This document shows, in pieces, positions 3,801 to 21,031 of a stretch of 32,000 nucleotides of DNA. The stretch comes from Delftia acidovorans NBRC 14950 (lineage in GTDB: Bacteria > Pseudomonadota > Gammaproteobacteria > Burkholderiales > Burkholderiaceae_C). Position 1 is the first letter of the stretch. Every line of letters starts with the position of its first letter. The position numbers and the translations under genes are program-made. Location of the stretch: assembly GCF_001598795.1 (NCBI RefSeq), contig NZ_BCZP01000004.1, positions 90,001 to 122,000 of the forward strand. The letters are read 5' to 3'. The notes beneath the pieces are model-generated. The model was not told the DNA's origin and did no database searches. It saw only the letters and a program-made list of their open reading frames with translations.

Positions 3801-4070
3801 CAGGCTGCCGTCGGACGCCGCGACCGACTTCATGTACATCAGGCCTTCGACGCCGTTGATGGCCTCCTCCAGCGGCACGGCCACCGACTCGGCGACCTCC
3901 TTGGGATTGGCGCCCGGATAGGTGGCGCGCACCACCACGCTGGGCGGCACGACCTCGGGATACTCGCCCACGGGCAGCTGCGGAATCGCGACCAGCCCCA
4001 CGGCGAACAGGATGATGGAGAGCACGACCGCGAAGATCGGCCGGTCTATGAAGAATTTGGAGAAGTCCAT
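876..4070 (-). CDS. RND multidrug efflux permease (HAE1 family, MexF-like), 1064 aa
   Basis: Part of track ORF 876..4304(-). The internal ATG at 4070 gives MDFSKFFIDRPIFAVVLSIILFAVGLVAIPQLPVGEYPEVVPPSVVVRATYPGANPKEV..., the canonical AcrB/MexF N-terminus. The length of about 1060 aa is typical. GGGAAG lies upstream of the ATG. Confidence 0.95.
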   Translation of the reverse strand: MDFSKFFIDRPIFAVVLSIILFAVGLVAIPQLPVGEYPEVVPPSVVVRATYPGANPKEVAESVAVPLEEAINGVEGLMYMKSVAASDGSLQVVSTFRPDVDPDTAAVRVQNRVSQAQSRLPEEVRQFGVTTQKQSSTPLMYVGLVSQDGQHDALYLRNYVTLKIKDVLARIPGIGDVGIYGAGDYAMRVWLDPDKVAARQLTAPEVIAAIREQNIQVSAGQLGAQPSPQSADKLLSINVRGRLKTPEEFGSIVLKGGADGQVVRLADVARIELGASDYTLRSWSDKKNMAAVGIFLSPGANALGVAEQVYAAMDKLSQDLPEGVAFETVWDPTVFVRDSIKAVQSTLIEAVILVVLVVIVFLQTWRASIIPLLAVPVSIVGTFAGLYLLGYSINTLTLFGLVLAIGIVVDDAIVVVENVERYIEEGHTPLEAAHLAMKEVSGPIIAIALVLCAVFVPMAFLSGVTGQFYKQFAVTIAISTVISAINSLTLSPALAAKLLQPRGAPRDPLARGLDRSLGWLFRPFNRFFDRSAHGYQNSVGHSLRRRGLVFAVYAALLAGTAVLFQAVPGGFIPLQDKLYLFGGAKLPEGASLNRTDAVTRQMVDAAKSVEGVDMVAAFAGFNALQSTTTPNLTSAYIMLKPFGERTRSAEAINAELGAKFSQIEGGFAYALMPPPIQGLGNGSGYSLFLQDRAGLGYAALQQALQAFQAEIAKTPGMTYPVSSYQSNIPQLEVKVDRTKAKAQGVALTDLFQTLQAYLGSVYVNDFNAFGRVWRVMLQADADHRQTVEDIASLRTRNARGEMVPIGSMVTVVPSFGPDPVLRYNGFPAADLIGDSDPRVLSSGEVLAKLQEIAQRTLPRGIELAWTDLSYQQVEQSNAAAVVFAIAVMLVFLVLAALYESWTLPLAVILIVPVCICAALFGVWLAGGDNNVFVQVGLVVLMGLACKNAILIVEFARELELRGVGIVDAALQACRLRLRPIVMTSIAFIAGAVPLLIGGGAGSEVRAATGVTVFSGMLGVTLFGLFLTPVFYVTLRRLSGRALTGHAPAHSTGPAQPASLESPHA

Positions 4071-4083
4071 GGTGCTTCCCGGT

Positions 4084-5298
4084 TCACTGCGCGGCCACGG
4101 CCGGCGCCTTGGCCACCGCCGCCTGCCCGTCGCCGGGAGCAGGCTTGGGGCTGATCGGCATGCCGGGGTAGTAGATGCGCTGCAGGCCGCCGACCACGAG
4201 GCGGTCGCCCGCCGCCAGCCCCTTGTCCACCACGCGCCGGCCATCGACCATGCGGCCCAGCTCCAGGTCGCGGCGCTCGGCCTTGTTGCCCTCGCCCACC
4301 ACATAGACGTACTTGCGGTCCTGGTCGGTGAGCACGGCCTTGTCGTCGATCAGCAGCGTCTGCCGCTCGCCGCCCACGCCCTGCGCGTCTTGCAGTTGCA
4401 CGCGCGCGAACAGGCCCGGCGTCAGCAAGCGGTCGGGATTGGGCAGGCGGGCGCGCATGCGCACCGTGCCCGTGCCCGCGTTGAGCTGGTTGTCGGTGAA
4501 GTCCAGGCTGCCCGCATGCGGAAAGCCTTCGTCGCCAGCCAGCCCCACACGCACGGGCCGCTGCACGCCGGGCCGCCCCTTGGTGTCCTTGGCGGCCTGC
4601 TGCTGCCGCAGGAAGCTGTGCTCGTCCGCATCGAAGTAGACATACACCGGGTCCTGCGAAACCACGGTGGTCAGCACGCTCTGGTCGGCCTGGGCCAGGT
4701 TGCCCACGGTGAGCAGGGCGCGGCCCGCGCGGCCGGAGACCGGCGCGCGTACCTCGGTGAAATCCAGGTTGAGCCGGGCTGCCGCCAGCGCGGCCTCGGC
4801 GGCGCGCACCTGGGCGGCGCTCTGGGCCAGGGCACCGGCGCGCGTATCGGCTTCCTCGCGCGAGACGGCATGCTCTGCCACCAGCTGGCGGGCGCGCTGG
4901 TCCTGGGTGCGGGCCAGCGCGGCGCCTGCGCGCGTGCGCTCCAGCTCGGCCTCGGCGCTGGCCAGGGCGGCGCGGTAGGGCCTCTGGTCGATCACGAACA
5001 GCAACTGGCCCTTCCTGACCTCCTGCCCCTCGCTGAAGGCAATGCGCTCGATATAGCCCGACACGCGCGGGCGCAGTTGGACCGACTCCACGGCATCGAT
5101 GCGGCCGTTGAACTCGTCCCAGACACGCACGCTGGTCGGCACGACCTCGCTCACCAGCACCTCGGGCGCAGGCGGCGGGCCGTCGCTGGCATGGGCATCG
5201 CCCACGGCCTGCGGGCGGCAGCCGGCAAGCAGGGCCAGCGCCGCCAGGGCGCCTCCGAACAGGGCACGCCGCAACGGCGGCGGTGGAAGAACGGGCAT
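4084..5298 (-). CDS. RND efflux periplasmic adaptor (membrane fusion protein, MexE-like), 404 aa
   Basis: Part of track ORF 4084..5421(-). The ATG at 5298 is preceded by AAGGAG. The N-terminus MPVLPPPPLRRALFGGALAALALLAGC is a lipoprotein signal. HlyD/MFP hallmarks are present (RPRVSGYIERIAFSEGQEVRKGQLLFVID, coiled-coil hairpin, LDFTEVRAPVSGR). The gene lies 13 nt upstream of the RND gene. Confidence 0.9.
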   Translation of the reverse strand: MPVLPPPPLRRALFGGALAALALLAGCRPQAVGDAHASDGPPPAPEVLVSEVVPTSVRVWDEFNGRIDAVESVQLRPRVSGYIERIAFSEGQEVRKGQLLFVIDQRPYRAALASAEAELERTRAGAALARTQDQRARQLVAEHAVSREEADTRAGALAQSAAQVRAAEAALAAARLNLDFTEVRAPVSGRAGRALLTVGNLAQADQSVLTTVVSQDPVYVYFDADEHSFLRQQQAAKDTKGRPGVQRPVRVGLAGDEGFPHAGSLDFTDNQLNAGTGTVRMRARLPNPDRLLTPGLFARVQLQDAQGVGGERQTLLIDDKAVLTDQDRKYVYVVGEGNKAERRDLELGRMVDGRRVVDKGLAAGDRLVVGGLQRIYYPGMPISPKPAPGDGQAAVAKAPAVAAQ

Positions 5299-5419
5299 GG
5301 ATCGACTCTCCTTGAGGGGGATGGGCAAGGCCCTGCTGCCGGGGCTGCGGCGGGGCCGGAAAAAGGGGCGGGACCGCAGGCTCTGGAGGCCTTCCAGGCG
5401 GTTGCTCACAATGGGTTGC

Positions 5420-5450
5420 ATTCTTCAAGTTCAAGTGAACTTGAAGTCAT
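5420..5450 (-). promoter_or_regulatory. SoxR-box (MerR-type) promoter reading toward the RND efflux operon
   Basis: The minus strand reads ATGACT-(19 nt)-AAGAAT. The spacer contains the palindrome TTCAAGT-nn-ACTTGAA (5430-5445), which is close to the E. coli soxS operator CCTCAAGTTAACTTGAGG. The box starts at position 5 of the -35 hexamer and ends 3 nt before the -10, the same geometry as the soxS promoter. A 19-bp spacer is the MerR-family hallmark. Confidence 0.6.
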
Positions 5451-5717
5451 GATCCGCGCGCAAAGACACCACGAAAATTGAGGACGGTTTGCCGGGGATA
5501 TCGCTGGCCGGATCGGACAAGCGCAGCGGCAATTGACCAGGAACGACCTGAGAAGACCTGGACAGGCGCGCACAGACGGACACACGCGCGTTGCCGCACC
5601 TGCAGGACGCCACCACTACACTGCAAGGCCATCTGACCCAGGGTGGCGGCCAGGTACCGCCAGAAACCGCCGACGAACGCCGACACCCTCCATGGAAAAG
5701 CACTGGATGCCTGCCGC

Positions 5718-8700
5718 ATGAATCTGCTTGCTCACGCCACACTGTCCCGGCCACAGGGACGCAACGAACGCATCAGCACCGTGAGGGTGCTGGCCCTGGA
5801 GATGCCGGGCGGCGACACCACGGCCACCGCAGCGCGCCATGTCGTGACCTTGCAGGTCACGCAATTGAAGGCCGGCGTCGTCGCGCAGGTCGATGACAGC
5901 ACGCTCACCCCCTTGCCCCAGGCGCTGGAGCCTGCACGCCAGCGCGCGCTGGCCTACCTGCGCCAGCGCCTGGGCGCGGGCGATGTGCTGCAGTCCCATG
6001 AGGGCTTTGCGGAGCTGGATGCTGAAGCAGGCCCGGCGCCCTCCCCCGGCCAGGCCCCGGGACAGGCCACGGTGCCGCCAGGCCTGTCGGAGTCGGCCTT
6101 GCAGGCCGGCGCCATTTCCGCCCTGTGCAAACGCCTGGACGGCAGCGCCTGGCGGCTGATGCCCTCGGGCCAGCAGGCCCGGCTGGTGTGGCGGCTGGCC
6201 GAGTATGCGGACCCCGCGCGCGGCGGCGCCGCCCAGCGCCTGCTGCATGCCCAGGTTCCACGCCTGGTGGCGCTGCTGGGCACGGGGGACGATCTGCTCG
6301 ACTACTGCCTGGCCTACCTCATCGGGCGCCTGGGCGATGGCGGCGCGGCGGTGGCCCTGCAGGCGCTCTCGCAACGCGGCACCAGCGAGGCCACGCGCGA
6401 TCTGGCGCACCAGGCCTGGCTGGCCCTGCTGGAGCCGCAGGAACGCCAGGCGGCGCTGCAGGAGTACCAGGCGCAGTGGGCCGGGATCCCCCCGCAGAAA
6501 AACGGCCCGAAAGAGGACGGACCGCAGGCCGAACAGGCCTTCTTCCAGGCACTTGGGCCACAGGCGCTGCTGGCGGCCGATGCGCTGGGCGCGCACGACG
6601 GCGCCATCCACCAGCAGCTGCTGGCCTGGATGGAGCGCATCCCCTTCACGCGCGCCTGGTGGCCGGCCCTGCGGCGCATCCACAAGCGTGCCGAGTGGCG
6701 GCGCGACCACGCCCTGCTGGCCGTGCTGCATGCGCGCTTCGATGGCCCGCGCGACGAGGGTGCCGTCTTCAGCCGCGACACCTCGCTGTACCTGCGCCTG
6801 CGCGGCTGGCGCCAGCTGCGGCGCATGGCCTCGGCCGACCACAGCGAAAGCGCCGCCCATGCCGCAGCCCTGCTCCAGGCCATGGACCGCTGCTGCGCGG
6901 GCCTGCCTGCCTCGCGCTCCGGCCGCCTGCCCGAATCGCGCTGGCTGCTCGCCGCCCGGCTGCTGCTGCCGCGCTGGCCGCAACTGCATGCCTCGGCCCG
7001 CGCCCACACCTGGTACACCGACGAGCCGCTGGACCTGCAGCAGCTGCCCGCGCAGCGCGTGGAAGGACTTTCGGCCATGTGGGACGCCCACCCCGGGCAA
7101 CTGCTGCAACTGGTGGGCCGTTCGCAGTCCACGCTGCTGCTGTGGTCGCTCACGCGCGCCCTGCAGGACCAGAAGGCCTTTCTGGACGGCCTGGATGCAG
7201 CGGCCACCGCGCCGCTGCTGCACAAAACCTATGCACCGGCGGCTGCGCTGGGCCTTCAGATCGCGCAGCAGCGCATGGTCTCGCTGACCGACGATGCGGC
7301 GCGCCGGCCCTGGCTGCTGGCGCTTGCGCAATGCGGCGACGGGCCTGCCGCCAGCTACCTGGGCGCCTGGCTGTCGCGTGACCGCGCAGGCGCCGCGCGC
7401 GATGCCGAACTGGTGGCCGCCCTGCTGCTGTCACCGGCCGCCAGCTCGCGCACCCAGGGCCTGGCCCTGCTGTTTTATGCCGATGGTGCAGCCGTGGCCC
7501 TGGCCTTGCTGGCGGCGCTGCCCACGCTGGACGCCGAAAGCCCCGCGCTGGCCGATATCCGCGATGCGGTGCAGGCGCTGTTCGATGGCAACGGCCCGCT
7601 GGCTGCGCAGGCCGCCAGCGTCCCGGCCCCACCGCTGCACCACCTGCTGGCGCATTCGGTGACGGCGCTGGTGGAGATGGCCACCGCCTGGCTGCTGGCA
7701 CACCCGCAGGGCCTGCGGACCCTGCCGCCGGCGGCGTTGCGCGGGCTGCTGGAATCCGAGGAACCTGCGCGCATGGCCTGCGGCATACGGCTCATGGGCA
7801 GCCTGGCCGATGACCTGCTGTGCGAGCAGGCCGCCATGCTGGCCGAATTCGCCGTATCGCCGCATGCCGCCTTGCGCGCAGCGGCAGCGCCCCTGGTCGA
7901 GCGCCTGGCCGGCACCCCCGTCTACAACACGCGCTGCAACGCCCAGATCGCCGAGCGCCTGCACGAAGTGCTGTTCCGCGCGGAAAAGGCCGAAGGCGTC
8001 CACGACGCGGCGCTGCGGCTGCTCACCGGCCCGCTGGCCGCCGTGGCCCCGGCCCGCGATGCCTCGGGCATCTGGCGCGCCCTGCAGGCTCAGGCCAAGG
8101 GCGCACAGCGCTACGGCGTCTGGGGCCTGAAGGCGCTGGACCTGCAGGTCTACACGCTGCGCCAGTGGTCCACGCTGGCCCGGCATGCCGATGCCGACGT
8201 GCGCGCCTTGAGCCGCCAGAGCATCGATGCGCAGCTCACCCCCATGGACCGGACCCTGCCCGAGCAGGCCGAACAGCTGCTGCCGCTGGCTGACGCCCTG
8301 TTTGCCGACACGCAGCAGTACGCACGCGAGATGTTCGGCCAGCGGCTGCCGGACGGCGCCCTGTCGCCGCAGCTGCTGCTCGGCTGGGTCGATCACGCCC
8401 AGCCCTGGGTGCAGGCCCTGGGCCGCCAGCGGCTCGCGCAGCACATGAGCGCGCCCGAGGCCAGCCTCTTCCTCACGCGCCTGGCCCAGCACCCCGCCAC
8501 CAGCGTGCAGCTGTTCGTCACGCAATGGCTGCTCGCCCTGCCCGACGAGCCCGCGCCGCAGCGCGCGGCGCGCCTGCAGGAGCTGCAGCCCTACTTCCTG
8601 GCCGTGCTCAGCCAGGTGCACCGCGCGCGCGCCAGCAAGACACGCGTGCTGCATTTCCTGCGCAGCCAGGTGCAGGCGCCCGAGACCGCCGCCGTGGTGG

Positions 8701-8861
8701 CAGCCATCTTTGCGCGGCAGGTGGTCAGCGCCAGCCATGCCGACCAGCCCGACTATGTGGCCGGGCTGCGCGACATCGTGCAGCGCCATCCCCAGCTGGC
8801 GCAAAGCTTCATGCAGCCCCTGGCGGCGGAGCGGCGCGGCCAGGCCCCGTCTTCAACCTGA
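5718..8861 (+). CDS. Large Ala/Leu-rich alpha-helical-repeat protein (ARM/HEAT-like by composition); putative retron accessory protein
   Basis: Track ORF 5643..8861(+) is a single uninterrupted 3.2-kb frame with high third-position GC. The antisense ORFs are Arg/Gly-rich junk. The start is uncertain: GTG 5643, ATG 5718 (chosen) or ATG 5802. I recognise no catalytic motif. The repeat-like helical character is inferred from composition only. The gene sits 31 nt upstream of, and co-directional with, the SWIM gene. Confidence 0.6.
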   Translation: MNLLAHATLSRPQGRNERISTVRVLALEMPGGDTTATAARHVVTLQVTQLKAGVVAQVDDSTLTPLPQALEPARQRALAYLRQRLGAGDVLQSHEGFAELDAEAGPAPSPGQAPGQATVPPGLSESALQAGAISALCKRLDGSAWRLMPSGQQARLVWRLAEYADPARGGAAQRLLHAQVPRLVALLGTGDDLLDYCLAYLIGRLGDGGAAVALQALSQRGTSEATRDLAHQAWLALLEPQERQAALQEYQAQWAGIPPQKNGPKEDGPQAEQAFFQALGPQALLAADALGAHDGAIHQQLLAWMERIPFTRAWWPALRRIHKRAEWRRDHALLAVLHARFDGPRDEGAVFSRDTSLYLRLRGWRQLRRMASADHSESAAHAAALLQAMDRCCAGLPASRSGRLPESRWLLAARLLLPRWPQLHASARAHTWYTDEPLDLQQLPAQRVEGLSAMWDAHPGQLLQLVGRSQSTLLLWSLTRALQDQKAFLDGLDAAATAPLLHKTYAPAAALGLQIAQQRMVSLTDDAARRPWLLALAQCGDGPAASYLGAWLSRDRAGAARDAELVAALLLSPAASSRTQGLALLFYADGAAVALALLAALPTLDAESPALADIRDAVQALFDGNGPLAAQAASVPAPPLHHLLAHSVTALVEMATAWLLAHPQGLRTLPPAALRGLLESEEPARMACGIRLMGSLADDLLCEQAAMLAEFAVSPHAALRAAAAPLVERLAGTPVYNTRCNAQIAERLHEVLFRAEKAEGVHDAALRLLTGPLAAVAPARDASGIWRALQAQAKGAQRYGVWGLKALDLQVYTLRQWSTLARHADADVRALSRQSIDAQLTPMDRTLPEQAEQLLPLADALFADTQQYAREMFGQRLPDGALSPQLLLGWVDHAQPWVQALGRQRLAQHMSAPEASLFLTRLAQHPATSVQLFVTQWLLALPDEPAPQRAARLQELQPYFLAVLSQVHRARASKTRVLHFLRSQVQAPETAAVVAAIFARQVVSASHADQPDYVAGLRDIVQRHPQLAQSFMQPLAAERRGQAPSST

Positions 8862-8892: not shown

Positions 8893-10620
8893 ATGGAATT
8901 TCGCTATCAGTACTACGGCAGCACGCAGGTCAACGACACGGCGGCCGAGCAGGCCTTCTCCTTCGCGCCCGACCTGCTGCGCCCACCCACACGCTTCGAC
9001 GGCCTGCTCCGGCGCGACGGCCCGGCCTACCTGCAGGTGCGCGAAGGGCTGTCCGCGCTGCACAGCGTGGTGGTCAGCGACCTGCGCACGCGCGGCCGCG
9101 ACAAGACGGCCTACCGCGAATGGCTGCAGGAGCACGAAGCGCAAATGCTCGCCACCTTCATGGCCGACACCGGCGGCGCCCAGGCGCGCGCCAAGGAAAT
9201 CAGCGCCGAACTCAAGAACCTGCGCGAGACCCGCAACCAAGTGCTCTCCCCCTTCTACAAGGCCCAGCGCAAGTACTTCGACTGGCTGTTCGTGGCCAAC
9301 CGCGATGCGTGGTATGTGCTCGACCCCGTGATCACCGTGCACCCGGACCGGCTGCTGTTCGAGGCCTTCAGCCAGGACGAATCGAGCTACTGCGCGGTCA
9401 GCATCCGGCACGAGGCCTTCGAGCATGCGGGCGAGCGCATCTGCGGCACCACCAACATCGATTACTCGGCCAGCCTCTACGAAGAATTCCAGAAGATCCG
9501 CAACTACCGGGACACGCGGCTGACGCTGGACCCGGCCGGCTTTGCCGTGCAGGTGGGCGGTGACCCCGCGCTGCGCGAGGAAAAGATCGACCTGCCCGAC
9601 AGCTGGCTGCGCGGCTTCGTGCAGGTCTCCAGCGCCATGGCCCTGCCCGCCACCGTGCTGGAGCTGCACCCCATGGACCTGTTCAACATCTGCGCGCGGC
9701 TGCGTGCCCGGCGCGAGCGCCACGGCCCGCGCGCGCTGCGCTTCGAGCTGGCGCCGGGACAGCCGCCCGCCGTGGTGTTCGAGCCCTGGGAGGAGCTCCT
9801 GGCCACCCGGCGCTCGCACGTCGTCAGCGATGCCATGGGCACGGGCGGCGGCACCATCCGCCTGTGGGGGCGCCGCCGCCTGCTCACGCTGGAGCGGCTG
9901 ATCTCCCAGGCCACGCGCGTGCGCGTGCACCTGCTGGGCAGCGGCATGCCCAGCTTCTGGGTGATCGAGCTGGGACTGGTCACGGTCACGCTGGGCCTGT
10001 CTGGCTGGAGCGCCAACGACTGGGCCGCCAGCGCACGCTTTCACCTGATGGCGCCGCAGGCCGAGGTCACGCCTGCCCAGGTCGAGGCCGTGGGCCGGCA
10101 GCTGCAGTCGTGCTGGCAGGCCGGCGCGCAGGATCTGGCCCAGGCCACGGGCCTGGCCCCGGCCCAGGTGCACACGGCCATGACACGCTGGATGCAGGCC
10201 GGGCGTGCGGTCTACGACCTGGACGCCGGGCGCTACGCCTGGCGCGAACTGCTGCGCGAGCCGCTGACGGCGCAGCAATTGCAGCCCGCCAACCCCGAGG
10301 AGGACAAGGCGCTGGCCCTGGTGCGCGGCAAGGCCATTGCCCCGCCGCGCATCGACCGCAAGGACGGGTTCAGCCGCATCACCGGCCAGATCCCGCGCGC
10401 CGACGGCAAGCGCCTGTTCGACACCCAGCTCGAACTCGATGCCGACGAGCGCCTGACCGATGCGCGCTGCAGCTGCAACCACTACCAGCAGTACCGGCTG
10501 CGCCAGGGGCCCTGCGAGCACATGATTGCGCTGCGCCTGGTGGCGCAGCCCCAGCTCGATGCCGCCCGCCAGCCGACCGGCCCGCAGATGAAGGCCGCAG
10601 GACAAGGAGAAATCGCGTGA
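8893..10620 (+). CDS. SWIM zinc-finger protein (WH-SWIM-like), 575 aa; putative retron accessory protein
   Basis: Part of track ORF 8710..10620(+). The ATG at 8893 (MEFRYQYYGSTQV...) has ACGGAG about 12 nt upstream. The C-terminus ...DARCSCNHYQQYRLRQGPCEHMIALRL matches the SWIM signature CxCxnCxH. Confidence 0.85.
   Translation: MEFRYQYYGSTQVNDTAAEQAFSFAPDLLRPPTRFDGLLRRDGPAYLQVREGLSALHSVVVSDLRTRGRDKTAYREWLQEHEAQMLATFMADTGGAQARAKEISAELKNLRETRNQVLSPFYKAQRKYFDWLFVANRDAWYVLDPVITVHPDRLLFEAFSQDESSYCAVSIRHEAFEHAGERICGTTNIDYSASLYEEFQKIRNYRDTRLTLDPAGFAVQVGGDPALREEKIDLPDSWLRGFVQVSSAMALPATVLELHPMDLFNICARLRARRERHGPRALRFELAPGQPPAVVFEPWEELLATRRSHVVSDAMGTGGGTIRLWGRRRLLTLERLISQATRVRVHLLGSGMPSFWVIELGLVTVTLGLSGWSANDWAASARFHLMAPQAEVTPAQVEAVGRQLQSCWQAGAQDLAQATGLAPAQVHTAMTRWMQAGRAVYDLDAGRYAWRELLREPLTAQQLQPANPEEDKALALVRGKAIAPPRIDRKDGFSRITGQIPRADGKRLFDTQLELDADERLTDARCSCNHYQQYRLRQGPCEHMIALRLVAQPQLDAARQPTGPQMKAAGQGEIA
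10468..10521 (+). other. SWIM zinc-finger motif C526-x-C528-x12-C541-x-H543 within the 8893-10620 CDS
   Basis: Codons TGC 10468, TGC 10474, TGC 10513 and CAC 10519 are in frame with the ATG at 8893. Confidence 0.8.
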
Positions 10621-10649
10621 CCCGCCTCAATTGCTCTACACTGCCACGC

Positions 10650-10876
10650 GGAGCGACGCGCAGGCTCTTGCAATCCGGGTGGTGTTTCGCCACCCTTGTG
10701 AACTGCCGTTTCATGCACCACGGGCGCCGTTTTCACTGTGCCACCCCAGCGACGGTATGCGTTTTCCTGAGTGGCTTGCCACAAGCGAAACACGCATACC
10801 GTCGCGGGGTGGCGTCGAGCGAACAGCTCCCGTCCCGTGAGCCCTGCGGGCTCTTCGACGAGAAGCGCGTCGCTCC
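10650..10876 (+). ncRNA. Putative retron msr-msd non-coding RNA (template/primer for msDNA)
   Basis: GGAGCGACGCGC (10650-10661) is the exact reverse complement of GCGCGTCGCTCC (10865-10876), like retron a1/a2 repeats. Between them are a hairpin at 10677-10695, a long imperfect hairpin at 10741-10812 (7+14+3 bp with two bulges) and a nested hairpin at 10813-10860. The element ends 51 nt before the RT ATG, and no credible ORF lies in the 307-nt spacer. The exact ends and the branching G are not determinable from sequence. Confidence 0.6.
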
Positions 10877-10927
10877 ATTTCTTTGCCCGCCGCACAGCGG
10901 CCGGGCCCGCCTTGCCGGGGTGGCCGC

Positions 10928-12904
10928 ATGAGCCAGCCGCAACCCACACGCGCCGAGATCTACGAGCGCATCAAGGCCTCCAGCAAACAGGAAGTCATCC
11001 TCGACGAGATGCAGCGCCTGGGCTTCTGGCCCAAGGGCGAGGGACAGCCGCAGCTGGCCGCCGCCCACATCCAGCGCGAGGGCGAGCTGCAGCGCGAGCT
11101 GGCCGAGCTGCGCCAGCAGATCGCCGTGCGCCAGAACCCCGAGCGCGCATTGCGCCAGATGCGCAAGGAGCGCATGCAAAAGGCGCTGGCCCAGCGCGAG
11201 GAAACCAAACGCCGCCAGGCCCAGGAGCGCCACGACAAGGCGCTGGCCTGGCATGCGAAGCGGGCCACGCACGTGGGCTATCTGGGCCCCGGCGTCTCCG
11301 CTGCCCTCCAGGGGCCGCAGGCCGGTGAGGCACCGCCTGCTGCCGGGGAACGCCGGCAGGCCGACCCGCAAAGGCTGGCCCGGCATGGCCTGCCGGAACT
11401 TGCCGATGCAGCGCAGCTGGCCGATGCCATGGGCATCACCGTGGCCGAGCTGCGTTTCCTGGGCTTTCACCGCGAGGTGGCCCGCACCCACCACTACCAC
11501 TCGTTCACCCTGCCAAAGAAGACCGGCGGCGAGCGGCTGATCTCCGCGCCCATGCCGCGCCTCAAGCGCGCGCAGTACTGGGTGCTGGACAACATCCTCG
11601 CCAAGGTGCCCGCGCACGATGCCGCGCACGGCTTCCTGGCCGGCCGCTCCATCGTGAGCAATGCCGCGCCGCATGCGGGCCACGACGTGGTCATCAACCT
11701 GGATGTGAAGGACTTCTTTCCCAGCATTGCCTTCGGCCGCATCAAGGGCGTGTTCTGTCATCTGGGCTATGGCGAGGCCATGGCCACCCTCCTGGCCCTG
11801 CTGTGCAGCGAAAACCGCGCCCAGGCCTGGCAGGTGGATGGCGAGAAGCTCTTCGTCGGCGGCAAGGCGCGCGAGCGCGTGCTGCCCCAGGGCGCGCCCA
11901 CCAGCCCCATGCTCACCAACCTGCTGTGCCGCCGCCTGGACCGCCGCCTGCTGGGCCTGGCCAGGCAGCTGGGCTTTGTGTACACGCGCTATGCGGACGA
12001 CCTGACCTTCTCCGCCTCGGGCGAGGCCGCGCGCGACAACGTGGGCCGGCTGCTGGGCCGCGTGCGCTGGATACTGCGCGACGAAGGCTTCACGCCCCAC
12101 CCCGACAAGGAGCGCGTGATGCGCAAGGGCCGCCGCCAGGAGGTCACGGGGCTGGTGGTGAACGCGGACAAGCCCGGCGTATCGCGCGAGACGCGCAGGC
12201 GCCTGCGCGCCGCCCTGCACCGCGCCACGCAGGCCAGCGCCGGCAAGCCGGCGCACTGGCAGGGGCAGGCAGCCCAGCCCTCGCAATTGCTGGGACTGGC
12301 GCAGTTCGTGTACCAGGTCGACCCCGTGCAGGGCGGTCCGCTGCTGGGCCAGGCCCGCCAGCTCACGCGCAGCCCCATCGACCGCGCCAACGATGCCCTG
12401 CTGCAGGCCAGCCGGCAGGACCGCGCGGCGGCGCGTGCGCAGCCGCCCGCAAGCGCACAGTTCCGGCGTCTGGCCGCCAGCGGGCAGGCGCCTGCGCTGG
12501 CCAGCGGCAAGACGTGGTGGCAGCCGGCCGAGCCGGCGGCACCCGTGATCGAGAAGACCGACCAGCAGCGGCGCGAACAGCGGCTGCAAGAGCGCGAGGC
12601 CGCACGCGCCCAGGCAGCTGCGGCCGCACGGCCGGCCGTGGACACGCCGCAGCAGCAGCCCGCACAGGCGCCGAGCCCCGACGCACAGGCACCCGGCCCA
12701 TCGCCGATGCCCGGCCTGCTGACCTACTGGGCGCAGATCGTGATCTGCTTCTTGCTGGGCACGGTGTTCCAGGCGCGCCTGATCACGCTGATCGGCATCG
12801 TGCTGGTCCTGCTCCTGCGCTACCGGCGCATACGGCGCTGGGATGTCTTTGCCGGTGCGATGGTGGTGGCCGTGCTGCTAGGCCTGGGGTTGCGGCTGTC
12901 GTGA
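10928..12904 (+). CDS. Retron-type reverse transcriptase with N-terminal coiled-coil-like extension and C-terminal transmembrane segments, 658 aa
   Basis: Part of track ORF 10883..12904(+), starting at ATG 10928 (MSQPQPTRAEIYERI...). RT motifs: HYHSFTLPKKTGGERLISAP, NAAPH (codons 245-249), NLDVKDFFPSI, LPQGAPTSP, YTRYADDLTF (YADD at 11990-12001) and RQEVTGLVVN (VTG at 12143-12151). NAxxH and VTG are regarded as retron-RT signatures. Confidence 0.88.
   Translation: MSQPQPTRAEIYERIKASSKQEVILDEMQRLGFWPKGEGQPQLAAAHIQREGELQRELAELRQQIAVRQNPERALRQMRKERMQKALAQREETKRRQAQERHDKALAWHAKRATHVGYLGPGVSAALQGPQAGEAPPAAGERRQADPQRLARHGLPELADAAQLADAMGITVAELRFLGFHREVARTHHYHSFTLPKKTGGERLISAPMPRLKRAQYWVLDNILAKVPAHDAAHGFLAGRSIVSNAAPHAGHDVVINLDVKDFFPSIAFGRIKGVFCHLGYGEAMATLLALLCSENRAQAWQVDGEKLFVGGKARERVLPQGAPTSPMLTNLLCRRLDRRLLGLARQLGFVYTRYADDLTFSASGEAARDNVGRLLGRVRWILRDEGFTPHPDKERVMRKGRRQEVTGLVVNADKPGVSRETRRRLRAALHRATQASAGKPAHWQGQAAQPSQLLGLAQFVYQVDPVQGGPLLGQARQLTRSPIDRANDALLQASRQDRAAARAQPPASAQFRRLAASGQAPALASGKTWWQPAEPAAPVIEKTDQQRREQRLQEREAARAQAAAAARPAVDTPQQQPAQAPSPDAQAPGPSPMPGLLTYWAQIVICFLLGTVFQARLITLIGIVLVLLLRYRRIRRWDVFAGAMVVAVLLGLGLRLS
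12725..12901 (+). other. Predicted hydrophobic (2-3 TM) C-terminal tail of the RT
   Basis: The C-terminal sequence is YWAQIVICFLLGTVFQARLITLIGIVLVLLLRYRRIRRWDVFAGAMVVAVLLGLGLRLS. It has three hydrophobic stretches separated by Arg-rich loops, and follows a Pro/Ala/Gln-rich low-complexity linker. Confidence 0.6.
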
Positions 12905-12909
12905 TGTTC

Positions 12910-12944
12910 GCGGGGCCGCAGGCCTCAGAGGCCTGCGGCCCCGC
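12910..12944. terminator. Bidirectional GC-rich hairpin between the convergent RT and AraC genes
   Basis: GCGGGGCCGCAGGCC (12910-12924), a TCAGA loop, then GGCCTGCGGCCCCGC (12930-12944) form a perfect 15-bp stem. It starts 6 nt after the RT stop and overlaps the last codons and stop of the AraC gene. There is no clear U-tract. Confidence 0.55.
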
Positions 12945-13758
12945 CCGCCACGGGTGCACTGCGCAGCGCCAGGAAGCGGCGCGGCGAGGTGCCCACCGCC
13001 TTGCGGAACATGGTCACGAAGGCGGGTGCGCTCTCGTAGCCCAGGGCATCTGCCACGGTCTGTATGCGCAGCCCCTCGGACAGCTTTTGCAGTGCGGTGA
13101 GCACATGCAGCTGGCGGCGCCACTGGTTGACCGTAAGCCCGGTCTCGGCCAGGAACAGCCGCGTCATGCTGCGCTCGCTCATGCCGATGCGCTGGGCCCA
13201 GTCGGCCAGCCGTGCCTGCAGCTGCGGCTGCTCGCACAGGGCGTTGGTCATGCGGCGCAGGCGCCGGTCGTGCGGCAGGGGCAGGTGCAGTCCTTCGGGC
13301 TGCGCCGCCTGGATCTCGTCGAGCAGCACCTGCATGAGCCGGCCATCGCCGCTGTCGGGCTCGTAGTCCTGCGGCAGACCCTGCACGCGGTCCAGCAGCG
13401 CACTGAGAAAGGGCGAGACGGCCAGCGCATGGCAGGGTCCGGGCACGGGGCGCACGGCCCCTGCCTCGACAAAGACCACGTAGCCGCTGGCCGCACCGCT
13501 GCAGCTGACCCGGTGCAGCGTGCCGCCCGGAATCCAGGCGGCGCTGCGCGGCGGCACCACGCAGACGCCCGCATCGGTCTCCAGCGTGATCAGCCCCGCA
13601 TGGGTGACCATGAGCTGGCTCTTGCGGTGGGCATGGAAGTTCATCCCCCAGTCGCCGGGGCCCGACCGCATGGGCAGGACGATCACGGGACGGTCCACAT
13701 GGTCGGGGTCCCACCTCTCGGGCAGGACTTTGAGCAGGGCTGAATCCACGGCATTCAT
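12925..13758 (-). CDS. AraC-family transcriptional regulator (N-terminal cupin-like sensor, C-terminal HTH), 277 aa
   Basis: Track ORF 12925..13758(-). The C-terminal region ...LADWAQRIGMSERSMTRLFLAETGLTVNQWRRQLHVLTALQKLSEGLRIQTVADALGYESAPAFVTMFRKAVGTSPRRF is a canonical AraC double HTH. Confidence 0.9.
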   Translation of the reverse strand: MNAVDSALLKVLPERWDPDHVDRPVIVLPMRSGPGDWGMNFHAHRKSQLMVTHAGLITLETDAGVCVVPPRSAAWIPGGTLHRVSCSGAASGYVVFVEAGAVRPVPGPCHALAVSPFLSALLDRVQGLPQDYEPDSGDGRLMQVLLDEIQAAQPEGLHLPLPHDRRLRRMTNALCEQPQLQARLADWAQRIGMSERSMTRLFLAETGLTVNQWRRQLHVLTALQKLSEGLRIQTVADALGYESAPAFVTMFRKAVGTSPRRFLALRSAPVAGGAAGL

Positions 13759-13789
13759 GGTGTTTCTCTCAGTTCATGTCAATCGGTCA

Positions 13790-14173
13790 TCAATCGGACC
13801 CGAGCAGCTCCCGTGCACGCTGCTGCGCCTCCTCGGGGGAGGCCACCAGCAGCATGGGATAGCCCCAGGCCTTGCCGAACATCTGTGCGAAGGCCTCGGC
13901 CTCGGCGCGCTTTTGCGCATCGGGCTCGGCGTGGACCAGGGCGCGCACCAGGCTTTTGAGCTCGGGGCGGCGGGCCTTCATCCACAGCACGACCTGCTTG
14001 CGCTCCTCAGGTGAGCGCTCCTCCTGGGCCATGTCGCCGTCGCTGAAGAAGACAAAGGCCTGGCCGCGGGCCAGCAGGGCCGAGAAGTCCTCCAGCAAGC
14101 GGTCCACGGGCACGGCCTTGTCGCGCTCGTAGCCCATGCGGACCAGGGGAAAGCTGCTGCTGTCGATGTACAT
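13790..14173 (-). CDS. Hypothetical protein, 127 aa (no family recognised)
   Basis: Part of track ORF 13790..14458(-). The ATG at 14173 (MYIDSSSFPLVRMGYERDK...) has a strong GGAGG 6 nt upstream. Third-position GC is high. The gene lies 31 nt upstream of the AraC gene on the same strand and downstream of the second SoxR-type promoter. Confidence 0.6.
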   Translation of the reverse strand: MYIDSSSFPLVRMGYERDKAVPVDRLLEDFSALLARGQAFVFFSDGDMAQEERSPEERKQVVLWMKARRPELKSLVRALVHAEPDAQKRAEAEAFAQMFGKAWGYPMLLVASPEEAQQRARELLGSD

Positions 14174-14346
14174 GGAAACCTCCGGCCGATGCCATTCAAT
14201 ACAAATGAGACCCATTACTGTATGAATGAACGGCAGCTGCGTCATTGCAGCACTCAGCCAAAGAATTTCGCAGTCCGGCCAGGACGCTCGCATGGGCGGT
14301 ACAGACCCGGTTGCCCTGTTCCTGCGCTTTCGCTCAGAATGGCCGC

Positions 14347-14377
14347 ATTCTTCGAGTTCAAGTGAACTTGAAGTCAA
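14347..14377 (-). promoter_or_regulatory. SoxR-box (MerR-type) promoter reading toward orf127-araC, divergent from soxR
   Basis: The minus strand reads TTGACT-(19 nt)-AAGAAT with the palindrome TTCAAGT-nn-ACTTGAA at 14357-14372. It is nearly identical to the module at 5420-5450 and ends 20 nt upstream of the soxR ATG. Confidence 0.6.
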
Positions 14378-14396
14378 GCCACAAAGGAAAGCCACC

Positions 14397-14900
14397 ATGA
14401 AAACCGAGGATGATCCACTGCTCAGCATCGGCGACGTGGCGCAGCGCAGCGGGGTCAAGGCCTCGGCGCTGCGCTTTTACGAGTCGCTGAACCTGATCGA
14501 GTCCGTGCGCAGCGCCAGCGGCCACCGGCGCTACCACCGCTCGTCGCTGCGGCGCATCGCCTTCGTGGTGTTCGCCCAGCGCATCGGCTTCACGCTGGAG
14601 GAGATCGCCGAGCAGCTGGCCAAGCTGCCCAGCCGACATGTCCCCACGGGCGGGGACTGGCAGAAGATGTCGCGGGTCTGGAAGCAGCGGCTGGACGACC
14701 GCATAGGCGAGCTGCAGCGGCTCAGCGAGAGCCTGGACCAGTGCATTGGCTGCGGTTGCCTGTCGCTGCGCCACTGCGTGCTGCACAACCCCGGCGACCT
14801 GTGCGCACAGAACGGCCCGGGGCCGCGCCGCTGGCTGGGCGACCCGCCGCCCGTGGCCATGGGCGGGCCCTGCCCGGGCCACTGCCACGACGAAGGCTGA
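14397..14900 (+). CDS. soxR: Redox-sensitive transcriptional activator SoxR (MerR family, [2Fe-2S])
   Basis: Part of track ORF 14226..14900(+), starting at ATG 14397 after AAAGGAAAG. The MerR HTH is LSIGDVAQRSGVKASALRFYESLNLI. The SoxR cluster motif CIGCGCLSLRHC (CX2CXCX5C) is present. Confidence 0.9.
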   Translation: MKTEDDPLLSIGDVAQRSGVKASALRFYESLNLIESVRSASGHRRYHRSSLRRIAFVVFAQRIGFTLEEIAEQLAKLPSRHVPTGGDWQKMSRVWKQRLDDRIGELQRLSESLDQCIGCGCLSLRHCVLHNPGDLCAQNGPGPRRWLGDPPPVAMGGPCPGHCHDEG

Positions 14901-15722
14901 TCAGGACACGCGCCGTGTCGTGACGAAGTCCAGCACCGCCTGCAGCATGCGCTGCAGCGTGGGCTGGATCTGTTCGGCGCGCTCGGGCAGGTAGTCGAAG
15001 GGCAGCGCTTCCTGCATGTAGCTGCACTGCGTCATCTCCAGCTGCACGGCGTGGATGCCGGCCTCGGGCTGGCCGTAGTGGCGCGTGATGTAGCCGCCTG
15101 TGAAGCGGCCGTTGAGTATGGCGGTGTGGCCCGGCGCGGTCTGCGCAATGGCCAGCAGATGCTCGGCCAGCTCCAGCGCGCAGCTCGTGCCCTTGCCGGT
15201 GCCCAGGTTCAGGTCGGGCAGCTTGCCTTCGAAGAAACGCGGCAGCACCGAGCGGATGGAGTGCGCGTCCCACAGCGCCACGGTGCCGTGCACGGCCTTG
15301 AGGCGGTCCAGCTCGGCGCGCAGCTGTGCGTGGTACGGGCCCCAGATGGCCTCGCGGCGCGCGGCGATTTCGGCGTCCGCGGGCACATCGGCCGGGTCGG
15401 CGTACAGCGGCGTGTCGTCGAAGGTGTCCACGGGGCACAGGCCGGTGACGCTCTGGCCCGGGTAGAGGCTGGCGCCATCGGGCGGACGGTTCAGGTCCAC
15501 CACATAGCGCGAATGCGTGGCCACCAGGATGGAGGCGCCCATGGCCTTGGCGAACTCGTACAGGCGCGGCAGGTGCCAGTCGGTGTCGGGCACGTGGCGG
15601 GCTTCCTCGGTCAGGCGCGCGGCGATGTCGGGCGGCACATGGGTGCCCGCATGCGGCATGGAGATCAGCAGCGGCGCCGTGCCCTGGTGGAAGACGAAGG
15701 GAGGGGGAGCGGTATCGGTCAT
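14901..15722 (-). CDS. hutG: N-formylglutamate amidohydrolase (deformylase)
   Basis: Part of track ORF 14901..16067(-), starting at ATG 15722 (MTDTAPPPFVFHQGTAPLLISMPHAGTHVP...DTDWH...LWDAHSIRS...LPDLNLGT...GGYITRHYG). It closely resembles Pseudomonas HutG (FGase family). Confidence 0.9.
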   Translation of the reverse strand: MTDTAPPPFVFHQGTAPLLISMPHAGTHVPPDIAARLTEEARHVPDTDWHLPRLYEFAKAMGASILVATHSRYVVDLNRPPDGASLYPGQSVTGLCPVDTFDDTPLYADPADVPADAEIAARREAIWGPYHAQLRAELDRLKAVHGTVALWDAHSIRSVLPRFFEGKLPDLNLGTGKGTSCALELAEHLLAIAQTAPGHTAILNGRFTGGYITRHYGQPEAGIHAVQLEMTQCSYMQEALPFDYLPERAEQIQPTLQRMLQAVLDFVTTRRVS

Positions 15723-15778
15723 GGTGTGATTCTGGAACGTTTCTGGCGGGTTTTGCGGGCCCATGGCTTGCGGGGGCC

Positions 15779-17179
15779 TCAGGATTGCAGGGTGGCCGCG
15801 CGGGCCGCGACAAAGCCATGGGCTGCCGCCTCGTGCAGCGCATGGCGGCCGGCCTGCACGCGGCGCTCGCCGCCCACCCACAGGCTGTGCAGGGCGCTGC
15901 TGCGGTGGCTGCCGAAGACATGGGCCGAGACCATGGCCTGCACCGGCAGGCCGGCCAGCGCCACATGGTTTGCGTCCAGCGCCAGGAAGTCGGCCTGCTG
16001 GCCCACGGCCAGCCCGGCCACGGGGCGGCCTGCGGCCTGGGCGCCGCCCTGCACGGCGGCGGTCCACAGCGCGGTGCCCACCTGCGGGTCGGGGCCTGCC
16101 AGCACGTTGCGCTGGCGCAGCGACAGGCGCTGGCTATATTCGAGCATCAGCAGTTCCTCGGCAGCGTTGACGCAGGCATGGCTGTCCGAGCCCACGCCCC
16201 AGGCGCCGCCTTGGCCCAGCCATTGCGGCATGTCGAAGATGCCATCGCCCAGGTTGGCCTCGGTGGTGGGGCAGATGCCGGCCACGGCGCCGCTGCGCGC
16301 GGCGCCCGCGTATTCACCGGGCGTCATGTGGGTGGCGTGGACCAGGCACCAGCGCGCGTCCACGGGGGCATGCTCCAGCAGCCATTGCACGGGGCGCTGG
16401 CCGCTCCAGGCCAGGCAGTCGTCCACCTCCTGGGTCTGCTCGGCAATGTGGATGTGGATGGGCGCGCGCGCATCCAGCGCCGTCAGGCCCTCCACGGCCA
16501 CGCGCAGGCTGTCGGGCGGCACGGCGCGCAGCGAGTGCGGCGCCAGGCCCAGGGCCGCGCCCTGGGCACGGGCCTCGGGCAGCAGGCGCTGCAGCAAGGC
16601 CAGCATGTTGTCCGTGCTGCGGATGAAGCGCGCCTGGTCGGCGCGCGGCGGCTTGCCGCCGAAGCCGCTGGTCTGGTAGAGCACGGGCAGCAGGGTGATG
16701 CCCATGCCGGCCTTGCGCGCGGCGCGCAGCAGGGCCAGGGACAGCGTGGCGTCGTCGGCATAGGGCCGGCCATCCCGGTCGTGGTGCACGTAGTGGAATT
16801 CGCAGACCGAGGTGTAGCCGGCCTCCAGCATCTCCACGTACAGCCAGGTGGCGATGGCCTCCAGCGACTCGGGCGTGATGCGCGCGGCAAAGCGGTACAT
16901 GAGGTCGCGCCAGCTCCAGAAGCTGTCCTGGGCCTCGGCGCGGTATTCGGTCAGGCCCGCAAAGGCGCGCTGGAAGGCATGCGAGTGCAGGTTGGGCATG
17001 CCGGGCAGCACGGGGCCGGGCGCGCGCGGCGCGCTGCCCGGCTGTGCGTCGGCCTGTACGGCCTGCAGGCTTCCTGTGCCATCCCAGCGCAGCAGCACAT
17101 TGCGCGCCCAGCCCGTGGGCAGCAGCGCGTGCTCGGCGAACAGCGTGCGGCTGTCGGAAGTCTGGTCGATGCCGCTCAT
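15779..17179 (-). CDS. hutF: Formimidoylglutamate deiminase
   Basis: Part of track ORF 15779..18097(-), starting at ATG 17179 (MSGIDQ...LFAEHALLPTGWARNV...LPGMPNLHSHAFQRAFAGL...HIHIAEQTQEVDDCLAWSGQRPVQWL...GICPTTEANLGDGIF). It is co-linear with Pseudomonas HutF. The ATGA overlaps the upstream gene. Confidence 0.92.
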   Translation of the reverse strand: MSGIDQTSDSRTLFAEHALLPTGWARNVLLRWDGTGSLQAVQADAQPGSAPRAPGPVLPGMPNLHSHAFQRAFAGLTEYRAEAQDSFWSWRDLMYRFAARITPESLEAIATWLYVEMLEAGYTSVCEFHYVHHDRDGRPYADDATLSLALLRAARKAGMGITLLPVLYQTSGFGGKPPRADQARFIRSTDNMLALLQRLLPEARAQGAALGLAPHSLRAVPPDSLRVAVEGLTALDARAPIHIHIAEQTQEVDDCLAWSGQRPVQWLLEHAPVDARWCLVHATHMTPGEYAGAARSGAVAGICPTTEANLGDGIFDMPQWLGQGGAWGVGSDSHACVNAAEELLMLEYSQRLSLRQRNVLAGPDPQVGTALWTAAVQGGAQAAGRPVAGLAVGQQADFLALDANHVALAGLPVQAMVSAHVFGSHRSSALHSLWVGGERRVQAGRHALHEAAAHGFVAARAATLQS

Positions 17180-18321
17180 TGTCCGGCCTCCAGGATGTCG
17201 GCCAGCGCGCGCACGAAGCGTTCGTTGTCGGCCTCGGTGCCCACGGAGACGCGGATGAAGTGCTCGAAGCCGGGCTCCTTCCATGGCTTGGTGATGATGC
17301 CCCGGGCCAGCAGCGCCTCGTTCACGGGGCCGTTGGGACGGCCGATGTCGATGAACAGGAAGTTGGCGGCCGAAGGCGCTATCCGAAGCGCAGGCAGTGC
17401 AGGCAGGGCGGCCAGCCGCTGCGCCAGCACATCGCGCAGGCGCACGGTCTCGGCCACGCCGCGCTGCATGAAGTCCTCGTCGCCCCAGGCCGCCAGCGCC
17501 GCCGCCTGGGCGGCCTGGTTGACGTTGAAGGGCGTGCGCACGCGGTCCAGCAGTTGCACCAGGGCCGCGTCGCTGGCCAGTCCGTAGCCCACGCGCAGGC
17601 CCGCCAGGCCCCAGGCCTTGGAGAAGGTGCGCAGCACGATCCAGGGCATGGCGCGGCCGCGCAGCAGGGCCAGCACGTCGGGGTAGTCGTCGGCGTGCAG
17701 GGCGTACTCGTAGTAGGCCTCGTCCACCACCAGCAGGGTCTGCGGCGGCGTGGCGTCCAGCAGGCGCGCGAAATCGCCGGCGCTGAACATGCAGCCCACG
17801 GGATTGGAGGGATTGGCCAGCATGGCGATCTTGGGGCCGCGCGCCAGCGCCTGGCACCAGGCATCGACGTCGAAGCCCAGCGCGGGCGTAAGCTCCAGCA
17901 GCTCGACGCGGGCGCCCATCATGCGCGGGTAGATCTCGTGCAGGCCGAAGGCCGGGCGCTGGGTGAGCACGCGGTCGCCGGGCGAGAGAAACGCCTGGCA
18001 GAGCATCTGCAGGATGTCCTCGGAGCCGTTGCCCACGGCAATGGCCTCGGCCGGCACGCCGGTGCGCGCCGCGATGGCCGCGCGCAGCGCCGTGCATTGC
18101 GCATCGGGATAGGTGCCCACGTGCAGGGCCAGGTCGGCCAGGGCGCGGGCCACGGCAGGGCTGGCGCCAAAGGGGTTCTCGTTGCTCGCCAGCCGCGCGA
18201 TCTCGGTGACGCCGTAGCGCGCCCGCACGGCCTCGGAGGACAGGCCTGCGTTGTAGGGCGGCAGCGGCGGCACTTCGGGGCGTGCCAGGGTGTGGATCGC
18301 GTGGATGGCGGGAGCGTTCAT
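17176..18321 (-). CDS. Histidinol-phosphate-aminotransferase-family PLP enzyme (HisC-like), 381 aa
   Basis: Part of track ORF 17176..19530(-), starting at ATG 18321 (MNAPAIH...). Motifs are LASNENPFGASP, NPSNPVG and LRTFSKAWGLAGLRVGY (PLP lysine). ATGA start/stop overlaps occur at both ends (18318-18321 and 17176-17179). Confidence 0.88.
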   Translation of the reverse strand: MNAPAIHAIHTLARPEVPPLPPYNAGLSSEAVRARYGVTEIARLASNENPFGASPAVARALADLALHVGTYPDAQCTALRAAIAARTGVPAEAIAVGNGSEDILQMLCQAFLSPGDRVLTQRPAFGLHEIYPRMMGARVELLELTPALGFDVDAWCQALARGPKIAMLANPSNPVGCMFSAGDFARLLDATPPQTLLVVDEAYYEYALHADDYPDVLALLRGRAMPWIVLRTFSKAWGLAGLRVGYGLASDAALVQLLDRVRTPFNVNQAAQAAALAAWGDEDFMQRGVAETVRLRDVLAQRLAALPALPALRIAPSAANFLFIDIGRPNGPVNEALLARGIITKPWKEPGFEHFIRVSVGTEADNERFVRALADILEAGQ

Positions 18322-19706: not shown

Positions 19707-19716
19707 GAGCAGGCTT

Positions 19717-21003: not shown

Positions 21004-21031
21004 GGGTGGATTCCTTGGATGTCGTGGGTCG

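Follow-up and report, generated by a model that had tools for sequence, protein, structure and literature searches.

The window analysed in this work is a 32,000-nucleotide stretch of the genome of Delftia acidovorans NBRC 14950 (contig NZ_BCZP01000004.1, positions 90,001 to 122,000 of the forward strand), and all coordinates given below are counted from its first letter. It carries a cassette whose parts are all co-oriented and follow the order WGR/HEAT gene, SWIM gene, putative ncRNA and reverse transcriptase (RT) gene. The features are as follows:

5718..8861, plus strand: gene for a WGR/HEAT-ARM repeat accessory protein (PADLOC model WGR_XIII, 9.4e-216; predicted start codon)
8893..10620, plus strand: gene for a SWIM zinc-finger accessory protein (575 aa from the ATG at 8893; PADLOC model SWIM_XIII, 2.1e-202)
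10637..10642, plus strand: TACACT, a possible -10 promoter element (a lead only), 7 nt upstream of a1
10650..10661, plus strand: a1, the 5' arm of the terminal stem, GGAGCGACGCGC, an exact complement of 10865-10876
10663, plus strand: predicted priming (branching) guanosine, with G10664 as the alternative
10667..10699, plus strand: conserved msr core, made of CTTGCAA and hairpin P1, near-invariant across phyla
10700..10719, plus strand: conserved, mostly unpaired segment (…CATGCACC), the predicted reverse-transcription stop, where the RNA 3' end would overlap the msDNA 3' end
10720..10833, plus strand: putative long msd stem-loop, which includes the 72-nt hairpin 10741-10812 and has its basal helix at 10720-24/10829-33
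10839..10853, plus strand: small hairpin GAGCCC-TGC-GGGCTC, seen only in some betaproteobacterial loci
10855..10860, plus strand: conserved TCGACG motif (ACGAAGG in the family consensus), shortly before a2, in what would be the first-copied part of the template
10865..10876, plus strand: a2, the 3' arm of the terminal stem, GCGCGTCGCTCC, an exact complement of 10650-10661
10928..12904, plus strand: gene for a retron reverse transcriptase (658 aa; PADLOC model RT_XIII, 2.3e-175; Pfam RVT_1, 7.5e-20)

The RT and both accessory open reading frames are intact and are matched to the PADLOC models end to end. For the RT, RT_XIII was the best model at 582 bits, the runner-up model reached 329 bits, and the best 25 matches listed were all retron RT models. 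The translation contains the NAAPH, YADD and VTG (VTGLVVN) motifs and has the extended N-terminus that is characteristic of type XIII. Its identity to Delftia acidovorans proteins is 100%, and that to the RT of strain SPH-1 is 99%. The SWIM gene product shows a Pfam SWIM match at its C-terminus (PF04434, 2.6e-05), where a CxC…CxH motif can be seen, and its Delftia homologues are annotated at 575-576 aa. The reading frame of the WGR gene is open from 5643, and the WGR_XIII match spans residues 26-1057 of its translation. Weaker PADLOC matches to HEAT-ARM_XIII were obtained for the same product, and a Pfam scan of it gave no match.

Type XIII includes the first retrons ever found. Mestre et al. 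2020 (PMC7736814) define it by an RT of clade 10 and a SWIM protein, in front of which a WGR/HEAT protein is usually encoded. All of these components were found in the Delftia cassette, namely the clade 10 RT, the linked SWIM protein (cluster 114) and the preceding WGR-like/HEAT-ARM protein (cluster 216).

The cassette is flanked by ordinary chromosomal genes. Those upstream encode an RND efflux pump, and those downstream are of the AraC, MerR and histidine-utilisation kinds. The efflux operon, with AcrB and HlyD-type genes, occupies window positions 1-5600 on the minus strand, and genes of the AraC, MerR, FGase and HutF types lie at 12925-21150. No integrase, transposase or phage domains were found among the neighbouring open reading frames scanned. 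The downstream neighbours recur in Delftia lineages in which RT identity is only 84-91% (87-91% in the loci L081, L083 and L084), which fits the vertical inheritance reported for type XIII.

Residues ~480-658 of the RT (window 12365-12904) form a C-terminal extension of ~180 aa, which begins where the matches of many homologues stop. It is of low complexity and then carries hydrophobic, transmembrane-like segments (LLTYWAQIVICFLLGTVF, LITLIGIVLVLLL and FAGAMVVAVLLGLGL). The homologues that match through residues ~650 come from Aquabacterium and Undibacterium and include several metagenomic proteins. The hydrophobic C-terminal tail suggests that the RT may be anchored in the membrane in this branch.

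The spacer between the SWIM and RT genes had been singled out in the initial annotation as a candidate msr-msd region bounded by a perfect 12-bp inverted repeat, and the two arms at 10650-10661 and 10865-10876 are indeed exact reverse complements. A perfect inverted repeat of at least 12 bp arose in 5 of 2000 mononucleotide shuffles of the 307-nt spacer. The hairpin proposed at 10677-10695 forms 8 bp, one of them G·U (-12.7 kcal/mol). The imperfect hairpin proposed at 10741-10812 also folds as described, with a bulged A10748, a 14-bp core and a bulged C10791 (-51.0 kcal/mol), and RNAfold adds a few pairs to the 3 bp given previously. The fold of the whole 227-nt element reaches -128.4 kcal/mol, compared with -88.7 ± 5.2 kcal/mol in dinucleotide shuffles (z = -7.6), and none of the 200 shuffled sequences was as stable.

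The simpler statements made about the spacer hold as well. AGG follows a1 directly on its 3' side (10662-64), a2 ends 51 nt upstream of the RT ATG at 10928, and only GC-rich chance reading frames cross the spacer. The lower G+C content that had been noted is real but modest, with 64% in the element and 66% in the spacer versus 70% in the SWIM gene and 72% in the RT gene. The 51 nt between a2 and the RT start (10877-10927) contain an imperfect GC-rich hairpin, GCCCGCCGCACAGCGGCCGGGC. This segment varies among Delftia lineages and is absent in Pelomonas, in contrast to the ncRNA, and it probably lies outside the retron element.

The check that had been named beforehand was the conservation and covariation of homologous spacers upstream of orthologous RTs. 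For this comparison, 80 related loci, one per species and from many phyla, were retrieved via an alignment of diverse RT homologues. The order WGR-SWIM-spacer-RT is kept in most of them, with a WGR homologue at the same position in most, and the spacers measured are mostly ~270-700 nt long. An alignment of nine spacers from nine species revealed blocks that are invariant across phyla. The blocks that stand out most are CTTGCAA with the hairpin GGGCGGTG-TTT-CGCCGTCC behind it, and a CACTG…GC segment; between them lies a stem that is variable in sequence. A strict regular expression for the msr core recovered only 30 of 69 spacers and was replaced by a covariance model. This model (R1) was built from an alignment of 16 trimmed sequences, in which RNAalifold predicted 46 pairs, 35 of them with compensatory changes; the sequence of the window belongs to the seed, and most of the matched elements lie outside it.

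Model R1 gave 80 same-strand matches in 70 sources (69 of the 80 related loci and the window), all of them upstream of the RT. The only match in the window covers 10652-10873 and scores 176.8 bits. Across the matched elements, 95.6% of the pair cells are standard-paired, versus 62.7% in shuffles and 38-41% when the partners are slid by 1-3 columns. Both sides have changed in 43 of the 46 pairs, and none of 500 shuffles reached the observed values. Because the alignment used for these counts had been fitted to the model, they are biased towards the structure; an independent MAFFT alignment points the same way. The element is thus conserved, and its helices covary strongly. Searches of Rfam 15 at the gathering threshold gave no match in the whole window or in four myxobacterial loci, and a relaxed E-value applied to 10550-10950 gave only chance-level matches to models of miRNA-like hairpins.

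Within Delftia, the ncRNA is almost invariant while RT identity drops to 84-91% and the spacer between a2 and the ATG diverges. All changes in the stems keep pairing: the locus L082 has two compensatory double changes, and the other stem substitutions create G·U pairs. The conservation of the ncRNA above that of the RT, together with changes that are compensatory or wobble-compatible, indicates continuing selection on the structure.

The number of copies differs among the related loci. One element copy is present in the Delftia window, and in 10 of the 80 related loci a single RT gene is preceded by two or three msr-msd copies, usually as a tandem array spanning a few hundred nt (L025 at 3230-3946, L030 at 2250-3067, and L014, L017, L021, L022, L036, L040, L049 and L061). 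Within such loci, identity between copies is mostly 87-100% in the msr and 43-82% in the variable msd stem, and each copy has its own a1/a2. With several copies per RT, one RT would produce several distinct msDNAs. This arrangement goes unmentioned in the main text of Mestre et al. 2020, which contains neither 'tandem' nor 'duplicat'. In three other loci (L071, L075 and L076, the last from the Firmicute Seinonella), the computed gap between the SWIM and RT genes is very small or missing (2, 56 and -8 nt), and model R1 gave no match. If these loci have an ncRNA at all, it must be located elsewhere or have a structure of another class; a 'Firmicutes' structure is listed separately for type XIII by Mestre et al. 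(PMC7736814).

Each homologous element is bounded by a terminal inverted repeat of 8-25 bp, whose sequence is unrelated from one element to the next. Between cognate a1 and a2 arms, the contiguous helix has a median length of 13 bp and the duplex energy averages -42 kcal/mol, whereas non-cognate arms combined across loci reach 7 bp and -20 kcal/mol. In Pelomonas (L001), GAGTGCAGTGCG/CGCACTGCACTC stand exactly where Delftia has GGAGCGACGCGC/GCGCGTCGCTCC. In the Delftia locus L082, the change G10655A in a1 is compensated by C to T in a2.

The segment just upstream of a1 is also shared between lineages. The sequence CAATTGCTCTACACTGCCACGC (window 10630-10649) is almost invariant among Delftia lineages. 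Delftia and Pelomonas have CTACACTGC in common at an equal distance from a1, and the neighbouring spacer differs. In two Undibacterium loci, TAGAAT or TAAAAT is found at the equivalent place, in one of them with TTTACA 18 nt further upstream. A consensus scan of 10300-11100 for promoters and terminators detected no full sigma-70 site and no T-run terminator. A dedicated promoter may start transcription at a1.

In the msr core, hairpin P1 consists of outer pairs at 10670-72/10697-99 and an inner stem at 10677-84/10688-95; it is 99.7% paired across the family, with double changes in six of its eight pairs. In known retrons, the priming G is found at the inner end of a1 or immediately behind it, in the context CAGC in Mx162 and Sa163 and GAGC in Mx65 (PMC6868368). 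The Delftia junction reads C10661-A10662-G10663-G10664-C-T-CTTGCAA. Of the 80 rows in the alignment of the family, 44 have A at column 11 and 37 have G at column 12, which lies four nt before CTTGCAA. A-G is the commonest junction, its G standing four nt upstream of CTTGCAA in 21 elements and two nt upstream of it in 14. The branching position proposed in the initial annotation, just behind the 5' repeat, fits both the A-G pattern that follows a1 in the family and the published CAGC/GAGC context (PMC6868368). G10663 appears to be the best candidate, with G10664 as second choice; since the junction differs from locus to locus, the assignment to one particular G is uncertain. A pairing of CTC 10665-67 with GAG 10858-60, suggested by the Undibacterium loci, was also considered and rejected, with only 3-18 of ~72-75 sequences pairing per position.

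No covarying helix was found that would form a second msr hairpin in 10700-10719. In Mx162, the msr and msd overlap by 8 bases (PMC6868368), and it is from this layout that we infer the placement of the reverse-transcription stop and overlap in 10700-10719.

The 72-nt hairpin at 10741-10812 is real, and its extent had been underestimated, as the stem reaches 10720-10833. The basal, middle and apical helices of this msd stem comprise 35 pairs, all with compensatory changes and 93.6-97.3% paired. In the basal helix (10720-24/10829-33), which is 97.3% paired, all five pairs show double changes; it is formed by ACGGG/CCCGT in Delftia, by ACTGG/CCAGT in most loci and by ACAGG/CCTGT in the metagenome-assembled genome locus L007. 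An additional helix of three pairs in the msd is 82.0% paired and covaries, and it is imperfect in Delftia. The order of parts looked for as a mark of membership, one to three msr hairpins with a long msd stem-loop behind them, is thus present in the element.

The nested hairpin that had been proposed at 10813-10860 held only in part. Its motifs CGTCGA (10813-18), TCGACG (10855-60) and GAGCCC-TGC-GGGCTC (10839-53) are present, but the outer stem is not supported by comparison. This stem was not chosen by RNAfold when 10813-10860 was folded alone. Across the family, the arms CGTCGA and TCGACG are 73.5% paired with one another, one of the pairs has double changes, and the stem would cross the 97%-paired basal helix, so it was rejected. 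Both arms are conserved motifs whose role is not readable from covariation, and the CGA of the TCGACG motif is invariant in the 16-sequence seed alignment. The small hairpin at 10839-10853 occurs in Delftia, Pelomonas (L001) and L007 and is gapped in the other aligned loci; in L082 and L007 it takes the compensatory form GAGCCT/AGGCTC.

The two parts of the element also differ in the kinds of pairs they use. In the msr helices (10667-10699), G·U pairs make up 14.6% of the paired cells, versus 1.2% in the long msd stem; the cells counted in both are not phylogenetically independent. Avoidance of G·U is expected of a long stem whose pairs have to hold in the RNA and again in its DNA copy, and the frequent G·U pairs of hairpin P1 are what a helix acting only as RNA should show. 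On the opposite strand, the G·U pairs of the msr would be C·A mismatches, which fixes the strand of the element. When the DNA strand complementary to 10713-10864 was folded, it reached -51.8 kcal/mol (z = -7.8). The depletion of G·U could serve as a sequence-only marker to separate msr from msd in uncharacterised retron ncRNAs.

Type XIII, which comprises Mx162, Mx65, Sa163 and Ne144, is reported to have an ncRNA structure class to itself and to bear signs of vertical inheritance (PMC7736814). The validated members are Retron-Mxa1 (Mx162), Retron-Sau1 (Sa163), Retron-Mxa2 (Mx65) and Retron-Nex2 (Ne144), and 21 published covariance models serve as a panel in later surveys (bioRxiv 10.64898/2026.05.14.725207). 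The Delftia system resembles the Mx162 class in its RT clade and in its SWIM and WGR/HEAT accessory genes (PMC7736814). Its ncRNA likewise lies upstream of the RT on the same strand and has a1/a2, the A-G context, the msr core and a long msd stem. It can be aligned base for base with the corresponding sequences of Archangium, Hyalangium and Myxococcaceae, and model R1 covers both Delftia and the myxobacterial loci L019, L023, L024, L027 and L034, as a structure specific to type XIII would. The element is close in size to the 241-nt primary transcript of Mx162, and the RT has an extended N-terminus like the myxobacterial RTs (PMC6868368). What ties the Delftia system to the validated retrons is its match to the PADLOC protein models, the classification in the literature and the homology to the Archangium, Hyalangium and Myxococcaceae loci; among the 120 matches listed in a search from a Myxococcaceae RT, no protein was named as that of Myxococcus xanthus. 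In the literature searched, no cellular role was reported for type XIII, no paper specific to a retron in Delftia was found, and the conserved msr sequence gave only an unrelated match.

The Delftia system differs from the myxobacterial type XIII retrons in several respects. The host is a betaproteobacterium, a1/a2 are 12 bp long instead of ~33 bp, and the extra hairpin at 10839-10853 adjoins a2. The junction is CAGG, unlike the CAGC of Mx162 and Sa163 and the GAGC of Mx65. The RT has the ~180-aa C-terminal tail with hydrophobic segments, and the possible -10 element TACACT, common to Pelomonas, lies 7 nt before a1. A comparison with Retron-Eco1 (Ec86) and the enterobacterial types I-III shows the same general plan of inverted repeats, a priming G at the inner end of a1, msr hairpins and an msd stem, and an RT with the NAXXH, YADD and VTG motifs (PMC6868368). 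In contrast to these retrons, to which the Delftia ncRNA has no sequence similarity and whose Rfam models give no match, Delftia has different accessory proteins and a much longer msd. Its system is chromosomal and stably placed, and not borne by a prophage or an island (PMC7736814).

Taken together, a conserved, covarying element upstream of orthologous RTs and the type XIII protein matches support the retron reading put forward in the initial annotation, to which the context of RT_XIII, SWIM_XIII and WGR_XIII and the covarying a1/a2 contribute. On the sequence evidence, 10650-10876 on the plus strand is very probably the msr-msd ncRNA gene of a chromosomal type XIII retron in Delftia. The class of ncRNA is already known (Mestre et al. 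2020, PMC7736814), and the Delftia element is an ordinary further member of it that introduces no new principle.

Other origins of such a structure have to be weighed. The element lies between two co-oriented genes, is highly stable (z = -7.6) and has no separate consensus promoter that could be detected, so it might be a structured 5' leader, attenuator or terminator that regulates the RT or ends the SWIM transcript and is never reverse transcribed. However, no terminator-like site with a T-run was found, and the layout that is conserved (terminal inverted repeat, A-G junction, msr hairpin and long stem) is that of a retron. Such a leader would also have to accompany retron-type RTs across phyla, as the element does, and the avoidance of G·U specifically in the long stem is hard to explain in a structure that acts only as RNA; this explanation is considered very improbable. 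The idea of a repetitive palindromic or mobile element of the REP or MITE kind, or of an RNA read from the opposite strand, draws on the nearly palindromic long stem and on two weak reverse-strand model matches over the long stem in other loci. It is next to negligible in view of the single copy in the 32-kb window, the placement of the matches upstream of the RT in related loci, the frequent msr G·U pairs that would become C·A mismatches on the other strand, and the full-length matches, which are all on the RT strand.

The element may also be a retron ncRNA by descent that is now an inactive relic, kept by linkage and yielding no msDNA in Delftia. The unusually short a1/a2 of 12 bp could be read in this way, as could one predicted basal pair that is mismatched in Delftia (C10728·A10825, according to the column mapping of the model-based alignment). 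The chromosomal location with the same flanking genes in divergent Delftia would leave room for decay. Against such decay, the ncRNA is far more conserved among Delftia lineages than the RT protein or the a2-to-ATG spacer, its stem changes are compensatory or wobble-compatible, which indicates continuing selection on structure, and the RT and accessory reading frames are intact and match their models end to end. A relic is considered very improbable.

For a functional type XIII retron, a mechanism can be proposed whose steps are taken from established retron biochemistry. The RNA would be transcribed with the RT gene or just ahead of it, and a1 would pair with a2. The RT would bind the conserved msr core (CTTGCAA and hairpin P1), and the 2'-OH of G10663, or possibly G10664, would prime cDNA synthesis, which would start opposite ~10864. 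Copying would run leftwards through the small hairpin and the long stem and stop near 10713-10720, and the copied template would be removed by RNase H. The expected product is a branched RNA-DNA molecule with ~150 nt of DNA in a long hairpin, which presumably assembles with the RT, SWIM and WGR/HEAT proteins.

It is conceivable, although rather doubtful, that the Burkholderiales branch of type XIII represents a distinct variant, marked by minimal a1/a2 of 12-13 bp, an extra hairpin in some members that lies in the stretch of template copied first, possibly its own promoter at a1, and a membrane-anchored RT tail. If this were true, the same chromosomal position in divergent Delftia would point to a role that is linked to the cell envelope or is of a housekeeping kind. 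Such a role would contrast with the soluble abortive-infection complexes of other retron types.

The analysis supplies an RNA gene annotation for a retron that is found across Delftia and whose RNA is detected by no curated Rfam model, with precise coordinates for a1/a2, the predicted priming G and the msd. The variable msd stem, built of Watson-Crick pairs only, is where donor sequence could be inserted for retron-based editing. Delftia is a genetically tractable betaproteobacterial host with a compact ncRNA, and it could help to test the function of type XIII retrons.
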